The position numbers and the translations under genes are program-made. Below are positions 17,098-59,218 of a DNA stretch of 64,000 nt, piece by piece. Positions within the stretch are counted from its first letter, which is position 1, and each line of letters begins with the position of its first letter. The notes beneath the pieces are model-generated. The model saw nothing but the letters and a program-made list of their open reading frames with translations. It was not told the DNA's origin and did no database searches. The stretch covers positions 75,495 to 139,494 of the forward strand of contig JBLYPV010000001.1 of assembly GCA_048538215.1 (NCBI GenBank), given 5' to 3'. The DNA comes from Patescibacteria group bacterium. GTDB lineage: Bacteria; Patescibacteriota; Minisyncoccia; Phycocordibacterales; GCA-2747955.

Positions 17098-17511
17098 ATG
17101 AGAGAACAAACAATTTTTGAAAAAATTATTAATCGCGAATTGCCTGCTGACATTATATACGAAGATGAGGAGCACTTGGTAATTCTTGATATTAATCCTT
17201 TTGAAAAAGGGCATATTCTAGTTATTCCCAAGCACCACTATGAAACGATTATGGATATGAGCGAAGAAGCATATCTGCAATTACAATCGTTAGTCCATCG
17301 CTTTGCGCTACGAATGCACCAGAGCTTTGGTGGGGGTATTAATGTGGTACAAAACAATTATCCAGAGGCACATCAAGTGGTCCCTCATGTGCATGTTCAT
17401 CTTATCCCGCGTACCGAAGACAAGCCGATGTATCATAGTGAGCTTCATACAGGAGGCTATGAATCAGATGAAGAAAAAGAGAGCTTTATCAGCAAGCTAA
17501 AATTGGTATAA
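17098..17511 (+). CDS. HIT-family (histidine triad) nucleotide hydrolase
   Basis: HVHVHLIP histidine triad, ...HILVIPKHH... Confidence 0.8.
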   Translation: MREQTIFEKIINRELPADIIYEDEEHLVILDINPFEKGHILVIPKHHYETIMDMSEEAYLQLQSLVHRFALRMHQSFGGGINVVQNNYPEAHQVVPHVHVHLIPRTEDKPMYHSELHTGGYESDEEKESFISKLKLV

Positions 17512-17909
17512 TGGGCGCTATGAAATTAGCAGAGCAATACGCCCGTACTTTATTGCAAGTAGCAGAGACAAAAGATGCAAAAGATTTTGATAAATTTTTT
17601 GATTTATTTATTGAATATCTGCGAGCACATCATCACGAAAAGCTCATACCACAAATATGCAAAAATGTAGTGCGCTTGAGCAAGTCTCAAGAGGCTTCCA
17701 ATAAAGCTACGATTACGGTGCGAGCCTTAGGAGAAGATAAGAAATTTTCTGATCTGATACATGAGCATCAAGATATGTTTGGCAATGCACCGCAAGTACA
17801 AGTGGATGCACACATTGTTGGGGGAGCTGTTTTGCGCAATCGCACACACCTAGTAGACGCAAGCTACCGCAAGGCCTTACTCGATCTTTATCAAACTCTG
17901 AAAAAATAA
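17511..17909 (+). CDS. atpH: F-type ATP synthase delta subunit (short, 132 aa)
   Basis: C-terminal ...HIVGGAVLRNRTHLVDASYRKALLDL pattern of OSCP/delta; position directly upstream of atpA. Confidence 0.55.
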   Translation: MGAMKLAEQYARTLLQVAETKDAKDFDKFFDLFIEYLRAHHHEKLIPQICKNVVRLSKSQEASNKATITVRALGEDKKFSDLIHEHQDMFGNAPQVQVDAHIVGGAVLRNRTHLVDASYRKALLDLYQTLKK

Positions 17910-17927
17910 TAAGTTTTTAATATAAAA

Positions 17928-17946
17928 ATCCGGGCCCTTAGGCCCA
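17928..17946 (-). terminator. Terminator for the minus-strand small membrane protein gene (GGGCC-TAAG-GGCCC then ATTTTTAT on minus strand)
   Basis: Hairpin plus T-tract only in minus orientation. Confidence 0.5.
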
Positions 17947-17990
17947 GATATGGTGTGCGAATCTTTAGAATAAGCTCCTCGAACGATTTA

Positions 17991-18233
17991 TTACTCGTCG
18001 GGGTCTTTTGTTGTAAGCCACAACGCGAAGAACCCCAAGAGCAAGATAAGGCAGAGGAGCAAGAAGGCAGTAGTCACCAAGGTCCAGAGCCAGATACTCT
18101 CCCACCCAAGGAGCATAGTAAGTAGGGTCTTCATGAGCCACACGAGCCCGATGAAGCCCAAGAGCTTCAAGGCAGGGAAGCAGTCGCGGATCATTCCCTG
18201 GAGCTCGGATTGTTCTTTCGTATGGTAAACCAT
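17991..18233 (-). CDS. Small 2-TM membrane protein (PLDc_N-like), encoded antisense between atpH and atpA
   Basis: 80 aa from MVYHTKEQ with SD AAAGGAGAG 7 nt upstream; hydrophobic WLW...LLLCLILLLGFFALW core; own terminator. Confidence 0.45.
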   Translation of the reverse strand: MVYHTKEQSELQGMIRDCFPALKLLGFIGLVWLMKTLLTMLLGWESIWLWTLVTTAFLLLCLILLLGFFALWLTTKDPDE

Positions 18234-18346
18234 TTTTTCTCTCCTTTCATCCTCACTTGCGCATAAGTGTAGCATAATCATTACACATTTGCTCGTCCTT
18301 TGGTATAATACGCGCGTATTAAACACTAATAATTTAAGAGAGCCCT

Positions 18347-56158: not shown

Positions 56159-56216
56159 TGCTTTTATTTGACCCTGTGTATGGTATCATTCTCATTGTTA
56201 GTAATATCTTTGTCTT

Positions 56217-57572
56217 ATGAGTAAAAAAGTATTTGGAGTAAAAAAGCAGGGATCAATTCGTGATATCCCTATACCAAATCGAGAGAGCGTACACAAGCTA
56301 GATTTGGGGGCTTCTTCAGGTGAAAATGGGGGGTCGAATAAGGCTACTCATAGAGAAAATTCTAAAGACTCACATAATAATCATCATATGAATAATCGAT
56401 TACAAAATACAAAGCAAAATATGAATAAACAAATCGGAATCAAGCTAGGAATTTTGGGAGTATTTGTCTTACTCTTACTTACTGCTTATTCTTACTTTTT
56501 TCATTCTGCCACTGTTGTTGTACAAGAGCGTAGCACAGAAGCTGTCTTAGCTGGGGAGGCACTCAGCGCATCTATTACAAGCGAAGACGCAACGACACTA
56601 AGCTTTACACGAGTTGGTCCTATTACCAAAACAGAGACCCTTTTTGTAGAAGGCACCCAAGAAGAAAATAGACAAACAAAAGCTACGGGTGAGCTTATTG
56701 TCTATAATACAGACTCTACAGAGAAGAATTACATCAAAAATACCCGCTTTGCGACTGAAAACGGCTTGGTATATCGAGCCTTTAATCGTTTTAGTATTCC
56801 AAAGGGATCAGAGGAAAATCCTGGCAGTACTCGCGTACTTGTAGTAGCAGAGAATCCAGGAGAGAAATATAATAGCGAGAGTGGTTTGAGCTTTACTTTA
56901 CCTGCTCTTAAGGAGCAAGGAGATCCTGCTTATGATGCTATTCGAGCTGAGCAAGGAGAGGCACTCACTGGTGGATACTCAGGTATAGTAAAAGTGCCGA
57001 GCGACCAAGATATTCAAGAAGCACAGGTGAAATTAGGTAGCAGACTAGATGGCCAGTTGTTTGATGTCTTTAAAGCTTCACTTGAAGAGGGGACAATTAG
57101 CTTTCCAATTTTTATGAGTGAGAGTGACCCTACTTTTACTGAAGAAGTAAATGAACAAAAAGAGGGAGTGGATGTAGTAGCGCGTACACAATTATATGGT
57201 ATTGCCTTTGATAAGAGTGAGTTCCAAAAGGCAATCGCAGAGAAAGTATTGGGCCAGGACGTAAATCTTGATGGCGTTACTATTACAAATATAGATGAAT
57301 TAGAATTTGCACTTACTGATAATGAATTTGATCCAGAAAAATCAGAGAATGTAAGCTTTACCGTTACTGGTAAAGGGCAATTTGTCTGGAAGGTGGACGA
57401 AGAACAGGTAAAAGATATTGTTGCAGGTAAGCTTAAGTCACATATTGAAAATAATTTAGTGGCAGGAGTGTCAGAACTATCTATTACTTCTGTGGATGTA
57501 TCTCCATTTTGGCGTCGTTTGTTGCCAAAAAAATCAGATAATATACGAGTAATTATCGATTCACAAAATTAA
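56217..57572 (+). CDS. Bitopic membrane protein with large extracytoplasmic domain (possible pilus-assembly partner)
   Basis: Basic, low-complexity 70 aa N-terminus, one TM ([21 protein letters not shown]), 370 aa external domain. Confidence 0.35.
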
Positions 57573-57603
57573 AAGAAGAATATTACACGCTAAAAAATAC
57601 CGT

Positions 57604-58962
57604 ATGAGAGAAGGAAGAATTACACAGATTGTAGGAGTTGTTGTTGATGTTTATTTTAGTGAAGGAGTACCTGAAATCAGGAATGCTTTATATGTACAAG
57701 CAGATGAGGATACGCGAGTCTACTTGGAAGTCGCCGCTCATTTAGGATTGGATCGAGTACGCTGTATATCAATGCAGGGTACCGATGGGCTAGCTCGTGG
57801 AGATACTGTTTACGATACAGGAAAAATGATTGAAGTCCCAGTGGGAGATGTATCCCTCGGACGGCTCTTTAATGTATTGGGCGATACTATTGACGGGAAA
57901 GAAGCAATTTCTCAAGAGACAGAGCGGTGGCCAATTCACCGTGATGCACCATCATTCGAAGATCAAACCACCGAAGTAGAAATCTTTGAAACAGGGATCA
58001 AGGCTGTTGATCTACTCATCCCTTTTATCAAAGGTGGAAAGGTAGGGCTTTTCGGTGGAGCTGGAGTAGGGAAGACGGTCTTAATTCAAGAGCTCATTCA
58101 TAATATTGCTTCCGAGCACGGGGGTTATTCTGTGTTTGCGGGAGTAGGGGAGCGAGTACGAGAAGGGAATGATCTATATGCGGAAATGACGGAGTCGGGA
58201 GTAATTGATAAAACGGCTCTTATCTTTGGGCAGATGAACGAAGTGCCAGGTGCTCGAGCTCGAGTAGCGCTCTCAGGGCTTACTATGGCAGAGTATTTTC
58301 GTGACGTACAAAAGCGAGATGTGCTTTTCTTTATGGATAATGTATTTCGCTTTGTGCAAGCTGGAAGTGAAGTCTCGGCGCTATTGGGACGAGTGCCGTC
58401 TGCTGTAGGATATCAGCCTACCTTGGCTGAAGAAATGGGGTCACTACAAGAGCGTATTACTTCTACTAAAGACGGCTCGATCACCTCTATCCAGGCGGTA
58501 TATGTACCAGCGGATGATTTTACAGATCCTGCTCCAGCGACTACTTTTGCTCACTTAGATTCTACAGTATCCCTTTCTCGTAATCTTGCTCAGAAAGCAA
58601 TTTTCCCGGCTATTGATCCACTTGGATCATCTTCGAGTGCTCTCACGCCAGACATAGTGGGGGAGGAGCACTATCGTGTAGCTATGGCAGTCAAGCGGAC
58701 ACTTCAGCGCTATAAAGATCTACAGGACATCATTGCGATTCTTGGTATCGAAGAGTTGTCCGAAGAAGATAAGCAAACAGTTTATCGAGCACGAAAAATT
58801 GAGAAGTTTCTTTCACAGCCATTTTTTGTTGGTGAGGTATTTACAGGAATTAGCGGTGAATATGTAAAACTAGAAGATACAGTGAGATCTTTCGGAGAGA
58901 TTATAGATGGCAAACACGATGATAAAGAAGAGGATGAATTCTATATGAAAGGGGCACTGTAA
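57604..58962 (+). CDS. atpD: F-type ATP synthase beta subunit
   Basis: [10 protein letters not shown] Walker A, DELSEED-like region. Confidence 0.95.
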
Positions 58963-58975
58963 GTAATAGATTGAT

Positions 58976-59218
58976 ATGAATTTTTTCCCTTTACAAGTAT
59001 TAAAAATTGATGAGGTTATATTTAGTGGAGAAGCCCTTTCTCTACAGGCACCGGGAAGCCTTGGGGAGCTTACGGTGCTTGCACAACATGAAACAATACT
59101 TACTTCGCTTAGGCAAGGAGAGCTAATCATCAAGCCAAAGAAGGGAGATGAGATACGGATTGAGATAGAGCAAGGCTTTCTTGAGGCAGACCGCAATAAG
59201 GTGACCGTCTTGTTGTGA
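58976..59218 (+). CDS. atpC: F-type ATP synthase epsilon subunit, truncated to the N-terminal beta-sandwich (80 aa)
   Basis: Beta-sandwich pattern; lacks the C-terminal helical hairpin. Confidence 0.6.
   Translation: MNFFPLQVLKIDEVIFSGEALSLQAPGSLGELTVLAQHETILTSLRQGELIIKPKKGDEIRIEIEQGFLEADRNKVTVLL

Follow-up and report, generated by a model that had tools for sequence, protein, structure and literature searches.

Dispersed F1 genes and short delta and epsilon subunits of the ATP synthase in a Parcubacteria-like member of the Patescibacteria

The atp operon, which carries the genes for the F1 and Fo sectors of the bacterial ATP synthase, is among the most conserved operons of bacteria. The present analysis concerns five F1 genes in a 64-kb stretch of a Patescibacteria genome (GenBank assembly GCA_048538215.1, contig JBLYPV010000001.1, positions 75,495 to 139,494 of the forward strand; termed here 'the window', and corresponding to about 10% of a contig of 622,806 base pairs (bp)), in which that operon lies in separate pieces. 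Very probably, the operon was broken by rearrangement within this lineage and its pieces have been stably inherited, with the enzyme remaining a normal F1Fo and the short forms of two of its subunits being the standard of the clade. A published catalogue of atp gene arrangements described three conserved blocks (a-c-b, delta-alpha-gamma and beta-epsilon), indicated that a split is tolerated between any two subunits, and recorded splits at gamma|beta in Bacteroidetes, Chlorobi and Cyanobacteria, and at b|delta in Nitrospirae and Alphaproteobacteria (PMC4154653). The same catalogue described fully dispersed atp genes in Aquificae and Beggiatoa, with splits that include alpha|gamma and beta|epsilon (PMC4154653). 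An analysis of 2,248 genomes by Niu et al. found the same class-specific patterns (PMC5709465), and b|delta and gamma|beta are the commonest of the published break points (PMC4154653, PMC5709465). A literature search returned no paper on the short delta and epsilon subunits of Patescibacteria or on the dispersal of their atp genes.

The genes of the window that are central to this comparison are as follows (lengths in amino acids, aa):

17098..17511, plus strand: HIT-family nucleotide hydrolase gene (Pfam PF01230, 9e-25), directly 5' of atpH
17511..17909, plus strand: atpH, short-form F1 delta (Pfam PF00213, delta/OSCP, 6e-9)
18347..19909, plus strand: atpA, F1 alpha, 520 aa (Pfam PF02874, PF00006 at 1e-82, and PF00306)
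19933..20865, plus strand: atpG, F1 gamma, 310 aa (Pfam PF00231, 2.5e-82, profile positions 2-284 of 285)
54911..57572, plus strand: two genes without assigned function, one of 415 aa and one of 451 aa with one transmembrane helix, directly 5' of atpD
57604..58962, plus strand: atpD, F1 beta, 452 aa (Pfam PF02874 and PF00006, 5e-73)
58976..59218, plus strand: atpC, F1 epsilon, 80 aa (Pfam PF02823 only, 7e-19)

An initial interpretation made from the letters of the window (the sequence-only reading) had placed the atp genes in two distant locations, and the Pfam matches and coordinates agree in doing so (17.1-21.0 kb and 57.6-59.2 kb), with atpD-atpC lying approximately 37 kb downstream of atpA-atpG on the same strand and in the same replichore. 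It had also placed a HIT hydrolase gene, and not atpF, upstream of atpH, an assignment that the PF01230 match at 17098-17511 bears out. The stop codon of the HIT gene overlaps the first atpH ATG by 1 nucleotide (nt) and stands 8 nt before the likelier atpH start, and atpD and atpC are separated by 13 bp. The translations retain the expected motifs (Walker A GDRGTGKT and SVSRVG in alpha; Walker A, the catalytic GERxREGND motif and the EELSEED loop in beta), and gamma is of full length. The 37-kb interval encodes GlmS, MltG, RNase III, GreA, a class II aminoacyl-tRNA synthetase, S16, S2, EF-Ts and ParB; a mobile element between the two atp clusters was considered and rejected, since housekeeping genes fill that space. 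The gene 3' of the terminator that follows atpG encodes a UDG-family glycosylase (21050-21643), while atpC, whose product carries the NCBI locus tag ACKKL4_00790, is followed by three small open reading frames (ORFs) that lack a transmembrane segment and then by genes for YchF and malic enzyme.

When set against the three published blocks, the window displays the gamma|beta break with beta and epsilon still paired, and the b|delta break with the order delta-alpha-gamma kept. These are the same break points and the same blocks as in the splits of Bacteroidetes, Chlorobi and Cyanobacteria and of Alphaproteobacteria and Nitrospirae; unlike those cases, the window belongs to another phylum, combines both breaks, carries an additional interruption between delta and alpha, and comes from a clade in which the operon is otherwise unbroken. 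The genome is that of a Parcubacteria/Paceibacteria-like member of the Patescibacteria, and the closest species-representative genomes among the matches listed in a pattern-based scan were of the Kaiserbacteria, Azambacteria and Adlerbacteria types (alpha 59-65% identical). In 80 such canonical loci (L004-L083; labels of this form denote contigs or loci of relatives that were read for gene order around the atp genes) the operon runs contiguously as a-c-b-delta-alpha-gamma-beta-epsilon. The canonical Parcubacteria/Paceibacteria operon and the window are alike in belonging to an eight-subunit F-type enzyme, in an alpha that is 59-65% identical and in their short delta and epsilon; they differ in that the window has a-c-b detached, an antisense unit interposed between atpH and atpA, and beta-epsilon removed by 37 kb. 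Even in the canonical loci the gamma|beta junction exceeds 300 bp in 32 of 65 cases and 700 bp in 11 of 65, reaching 1.8 kb, with inserts of one to three small genes that include those for Ham1/ITPase, NTPase_I-T and a 23S-rRNA-IVP protein.

Additional contigs of relatives, taken from a search for alpha homologues among the matches listed, demonstrated that the split itself is inherited. A 4.9-kb Logan contig is identical to the window and carries HIT-atpH-atpA-atpG-UDG, and the order HIT-atpH-atpA-atpG recurs in L166 (alpha 89% identical), L165 (80%), L167 (75%) and L169 and L170 (both 74%); none of those five has atpBEF upstream or atpD downstream, and several kb of upstream gene order in the relatives (L21, HhH-GPD, RpiB, MraY, TsaD) match the window. 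In L164 (alpha 77%) atpA-atpG stands without atpH and is followed by RsmI, an FAD oxidase (minus strand) and DsbA, as in the window. The other cluster is similarly repeated: L003 has a homologue of the 451-aa gene followed by atpD-atpC, and L002 has atpD-atpC followed by YchF and malic enzyme, again as in the window. The dispersal goes further in L171 (10001-11563), L172 (9842-11404) and L173 (10001-11569), where alpha is 66-68% identical and atpA stands alone: no other atp gene lies in the available flanks, which cover some 10 kb to either side of atpA in L171 and L172 and the upstream side only in L173, in which atpA lies at the contig end; SecE-NusG follow the solitary gene in L171, and Dus precedes it in L172. 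Those three loci resemble the dispersal of Aquificae and Beggiatoa, whereas the window keeps its alpha-gamma and beta-epsilon pairs.

Beyond the distance between the clusters, the interval between atpH and atpA suggests an additional division. These two genes are not contiguous, but are separated by a spacer of 437 bp (17910-18346), and the following predicted features lie within that spacer and after atpG:

17928..17949, minus strand: GC-rich hairpin with a T-run on the minus strand (9-bp stem, 6 GC pairs, tail TTTTATATTA; terminator scan)
17991..18233, minus strand: antisense ORF of 80 aa with two predicted transmembrane helices (hydropathy), preceded by a GGAGAG Shine-Dalgarno sequence and starting with ATG
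18280..18309, plus strand: sigma-70-like extended -10 promoter, ATTACA-18 nt-TG-n-TATAAT (10 of 12 matches plus the TG), about 40 nt 5' of atpA
20994..21017, plus strand: intrinsic terminator of atpA-atpG, with a 5-bp all-GC stem (20994-21007), CGCCCTTCGGGGCG then TTTTTGTTTT

The first hairpin is a predicted terminator of the antisense ORF and a possible barrier to read-through from atpH, and L166 has a hairpin with flanking A- and T-runs at the equivalent place. L166 also has a minus-strand counterpart of the antisense ORF (998-1261, 87 aa, called as a gene) with 24% identity, an E-value of 3e-6 and matching topology; the insert is absent from L165, L167 and L169, where the gap between atpH and atpA is 46-113 bp. 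The 80-aa product has no match to a Pfam family, and its candidacy as a c subunit was rejected, as it matched neither Pfam nor the hidden Markov model (HMM) of Fo c. The block comprising the promoter and leader (GTCCTTTGGTATAATA-GCGCGTATTA-ACACTAAT) is kept nearly base for base in L166, in contrast to the adjoining antisense ORF with its 24% amino acid identity. An Rfam search of 16600-18400 matched only two tRNAs. Within that same region, a GC-rich spacer of 178 nt (16766-16943) separates tRNA-Val from a convergent tRNA-Thr and had no Rfam match at E<=1.

At the second cluster, the 451-aa gene ends 31 bp before atpD with no terminator in between, and the pair of genes beginning at 54911 starts after a divergent minus-strand gene for a pseudouridine synthase. 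Neither the 415-aa nor the 451-aa product matched a Pfam family above threshold, and the latter has a long N-terminus of low complexity; its homologue precedes atpD in L003 as well. The spacing suggests that these two genes are probably co-transcribed with atpD-atpC, and the HIT gene probably supplies the promoter of atpH. The F1 genes are thus likely, as judged from these predicted signals, to form at least three units (HIT-atpH, atpA-atpG, and the two upstream genes with atpD-atpC), to which an unseen Fo unit would be added. The sequence-only reading had correctly placed a terminator after atpG at 20994, where an all-GC stem plus a T-run is predicted; its count of two transcription units is probably too low, given the hairpin, the antisense ORF and the conserved promoter between atpH and atpA.

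The epsilon subunit encoded by atpC had been described as an 80-aa protein without the regulatory C-terminal helices, and further analysis agreed on both counts. Its residues 4-79 correspond to 5-80 of the E. coli epsilon (139 aa in full), at which point the chain stops, inside the last beta-strand; the beta-sandwich (PF02823) is present, and the helical domain (PF00401) finds no match. Two close relatives among the matches listed, at 74% and 65% identity, also have 80 aa. In the loci of relatives with an intact operon the median is 82 aa and the maximum 93 (n=66), and none of the 66 epsilon genes identified in the 80 canonical loci encodes PF00401. As a control, 80 more distant metagenome loci (from a metagenome scan with gamma, representing distant bacteria with at most 42% identity) gave 48 epsilons, 47 of them 135-156 aa long, which indicates that the procedure detects long forms when they are present; delta in those loci was found at both ~178 and ~130 aa. 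It is a reasonable conclusion that auto-inhibition by epsilon has been lost, and that this loss is clade-wide and not peculiar to the genome studied here. Shortened epsilons have several precedents, including C-terminal truncations in Alphaproteobacteria (PMC9317440), which likewise dispense with the inhibitory helices and retain the N-terminal beta-sandwich. A mycobacterial epsilon of 121 aa also has a naturally shortened C-terminus, and a PDB search found natively encoded epsilons of 121-148 aa among solved structures (and, in addition, a 101-aa chain of E. coli type); at 80 aa, that of the window is shorter. Feniouk et al., in 2006, are said to have reported that the epsilons of Bacteroides and Chlorobium are without the C-terminal domain entirely.

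The delta subunit is shortened in its N-terminal domain. Claimed initially as 132 aa, it has that length if translated from the first ATG, but 129 aa if translated from 17520, the start that is used by NCBI and by all relatives and that is likely to be the true one. The OSCP profile PF00213 is matched only at positions 62-171 of 172, alignment with hhalign pairs residues 30-126 with residues 73-171 of the E. coli delta, and PDB profiles of delta/OSCP match over the C-terminal two-thirds, with E-values down to 9e-14. An AlphaFold2 (AF2) model, built from an alignment of 61 sequences and with a confidence score (pLDDT) of 89, contains three N-terminal helices (3-20, 23-39 and 43-63) followed by an alpha/beta C-terminal domain, and its best fold matches among solved structures are delta/OSCP chains. 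Approximately 45-50 residues of the N-domain, which ordinarily has six helices, are missing, while the C-terminal domain (the best conserved part of the protein) and the last two helices of the N-domain match delta/OSCP. A frameshifted long delta was considered and rejected, as the upstream frames overlap the HIT gene and bear no resemblance to delta.

Two accounts of how the residues were lost can be offered. The best hhalign alignment is collinear (residues 3-132 of the short delta on 52-180 of a long delta, probability 98.7%), which argues for an N-terminal truncation of about 50 residues. In an alternative alignment (E 0.001), the near-invariant A-x-x-Y-A-x-A-L of the short deltas matches ARPYAKAxF of helix 1 in eight of eight long deltas, which argues instead for an internal deletion of helices 2-4. 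The second account, in which the first helix of the short delta would be helix 1, is somewhat the better favoured. Nuclear magnetic resonance work on the E. coli delta reportedly showed that helices 1 and 5 form a groove that binds the N-terminus of alpha. Under either account half of the N-domain is gone, and the C-domain that binds b is complete.

The short delta is also widespread. Its median length is 127 aa in the 80 Parcubacteria-type loci with an intact operon (n=80), and a HMMER search of 1.84 billion cluster representatives returned 282 matches, of which 149 of the best 150 are 116-143 aa long; the lone 182-aa representative has a junk-like N-terminal extension, which suggests that its start was called wrongly. 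A word-index search for homologues of delta matched the protein itself and nothing else, and when a four-sequence delta alignment was scanned against metagenomes, there were 600 pattern matches, of which none was confirmed. Several distant metagenome loci (L088, L123, L134, L136, L142, L143, L145, L148 and L156) pair a delta of only 116-132 aa with an epsilon of the normal long form (136-152 aa), indicating that the shortening of delta is wider than the truncation of epsilon and separable from it.

Alignment with orthologues thus upheld both short forms and revealed them as common to the whole clade. The sequence-only reading had gone further, in proposing that the fragmentation of the operon and the losses from delta and epsilon are linked, specific to this genome, and jointly responsible for a retuned regulation of F1. 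Both features do co-occur in the window, but a short delta and a short epsilon are found in all 80 relatives that have an intact operon, so that the minimisation is older than the split and independent of it, and the family of short deltas extends to at least 282 cluster representatives; a linked change is therefore very unlikely. By these comparisons, the minimisation of delta and epsilon is old and shared across the clade, and came before the operon was split.

The whereabouts of the membrane sector bear on a further pair of alternatives. No a, b or c subunit of Fo was detected in a six-frame translation of the window at E<=10, using HMMs that were built from 64-78 relatives and that recovered 74-79 positive controls, and none was found by Pfam among the multi-pass membrane ORFs of the window, which correspond to PrsW, VIT1, DUF2157, a Na/Ca exchanger, PilC, MraY and P-type ATPases. 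The Fo genes would lie outside the 64-kb window, and the statement of the sequence-only reading that they are absent upstream of atpH (where the HIT gene is found instead) holds for the window as a whole. A further ~150 kb of loci from ten related contigs also yielded no a, b or c, and none was present in approximately 200 kb of sequence from the lineage in all. It might be argued from these absences that the membrane sector has been lost, with the dispersed genes now encoding a soluble or differently anchored ATPase or being themselves in the process of loss, and the graded dispersal down to a solitary atpA is a pattern that relaxed selection for co-expression might yield. The window represents only a small portion of its contig, however, such that absence from it weighs little, and all five F1 genes are intact and under strong purifying selection. 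Relative to the closest relatives, the ratio of nonsynonymous to synonymous substitution rates (dN/dS, with synonymous sites saturated) is 0.04 for atpA, less than 0.09 for atpG and less than 0.1 for atpC; it is 0.14 for atpH relative to L166, and 0.014 for atpD, with beta being 93% identical to that of L003. No value thus exceeds 0.14, and delta and epsilon are included in that constraint.

Delta is not known to have any role other than linking F1 with the b stalk, and its conservation in spite of that single role suggests that Fo is encoded elsewhere in the genome; epsilon, for its part, couples gamma to the c-ring. That the C-terminal domain of delta is the best conserved part of the protein likewise speaks against an F1 without Fo, which is accordingly improbable. 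Similarly improbable is the proposal that the lineage has lost or replaced Fo, with F1 being soluble or being anchored by non-homologous partners such as the membrane proteins encoded near atpD or between atpH and atpA.

Two remaining alternatives are weaker still. The atpD-atpC pair might represent a second ATPase locus, of the N-ATPase type or otherwise paralogous, and not the partner of atpA-atpG, as N-ATPase loci also begin with beta-epsilon (PMC4154653); but the window contains one alpha and one beta only, the N-ATPase order (atpD-atpC-atpQ-atpR-atpB-atpE-atpF-atpA-atpG, lacking delta) is broken off after atpC, where the three small non-membrane ORFs, YchF and malic enzyme stand in place of a, c and b, a delta gene is present, and the beta of the window scores 874 bits (that of L003 scores 870) with an HMM built from the operon betas of canonical relatives, all of which make a second locus scarcely credible. 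Equally scarcely to be entertained is a mis-joined contig between 21 kb and 57 kb that conceals a contiguous operon, even though the sequence derives from a metagenome-assembled genome, since the window is uniform in GC content and GC skew, each cluster is repeated on both its sides on independent contigs from other samples and species, and the atpA-atpG contig of a relative in SRR23008603 extends 9 kb past atpG without atpD, its atpD-atpC lying on another contig; a chimeric contig, which had been named beforehand as the outcome that would overturn the split, is excluded by the same repetition of both gene orders.

The explanation preferred here, an operon broken within the lineage and inherited in pieces, would operate as follows. 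An ancestral operon of the order a-c-b-delta-alpha-gamma-beta-epsilon, as suggested by the relatives, would have been broken by rearrangement in this lineage, and its pieces would have been inherited stably since that break-up. Together with Fo, the five F1 proteins would continue to form a normal rotary F1Fo, with the stoichiometry of the subunits presumably being set by separate promoters and not by position within an operon, and ATP hydrolysis, in an enzyme that is without the epsilon brake, would not be auto-inhibited by that subunit. The missing brake fits such organisms, which are thought to have no respiratory chain and to use F1Fo for pumping protons at the expense of ATP.

Several points weigh against this explanation. 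The Fo genes of this genome were not seen in the sequence analysed, so that a complete F1Fo is inferred, as is the operation of the enzyme as a pump. The promoters and terminators are matches to consensus only; the T-run of the hairpin after atpH is on the minus strand only, and read-through from atpH into atpA may occur. The antisense ORF has no family match, and the gene calls of the identical Logan contig do not include it.

A number of additional observations concern other genes of the window and of its relatives. Nucleotide house-cleaning hydrolases (Ham1/ITPase, NTPase_I-T, NUDIX and HIT) and the 23S-rRNA-IVP four-helix protein recur within or beside the atp genes of the clade (L018 12006-12599; L026 12875-13480; L041 2879-3415; L052 7170-7535; L002 752-1150; window 17098-17511), a recurrence that may represent the chance filling of loose junctions. 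The window, although part of a very small genome, encodes two P-type ATPases: the product of 1610-3610 (plus strand) has E1-E2_ATPase and HAD hydrolase domains only and has DUF305, DUF411 and DUF302 as neighbours, and that of 43757-46432 (plus strand) is of the cation-transporting type, with Cation_ATPase_N and Cation_ATPase_C domains, and could bear on the generation of ion gradients alongside F1Fo. An HI0933-like flavoprotein is encoded as two adjacent ORFs (8198-8845 and 8879-9439, both minus strand), the one corresponding to the Rossmann N-part and the other to the barrel/H2TH plus C-part, possibly as the result of a frameshift, as a pseudogene or as a genuine split gene. Finally, a single ORF at 38331-39218 (plus strand) joins a NusB domain (residues 7-135) to a NUDIX hydrolase domain (161-280).

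The split of the atp genes is genuine but fairly ordinary, and both it and the short subunits are of known kinds; the results alter nothing that is known of how the ATP synthase works. What they add is modest: a graded series of dispersal, a probable third F1 unit arising from the antisense insert, and the recognition of a short delta and epsilon as the norm of the clade. For the structure and regulation of the ATP synthase, it is of modest interest that throughout the Parcubacteria-type group delta falls some 50 residues short of its usual length and epsilon lacks the regulatory helices. The presence of Fo in the lineage is the point that could raise the interest of the finding. The occurrence of an atp break-up inside a clade in which the operon is otherwise intact was not encountered in the literature searched, and the series that leads from delta-alpha-gamma plus beta-epsilon to a solitary atpA could help in studying how stoichiometric complexes are maintained without operon co-expression in tiny genomes.

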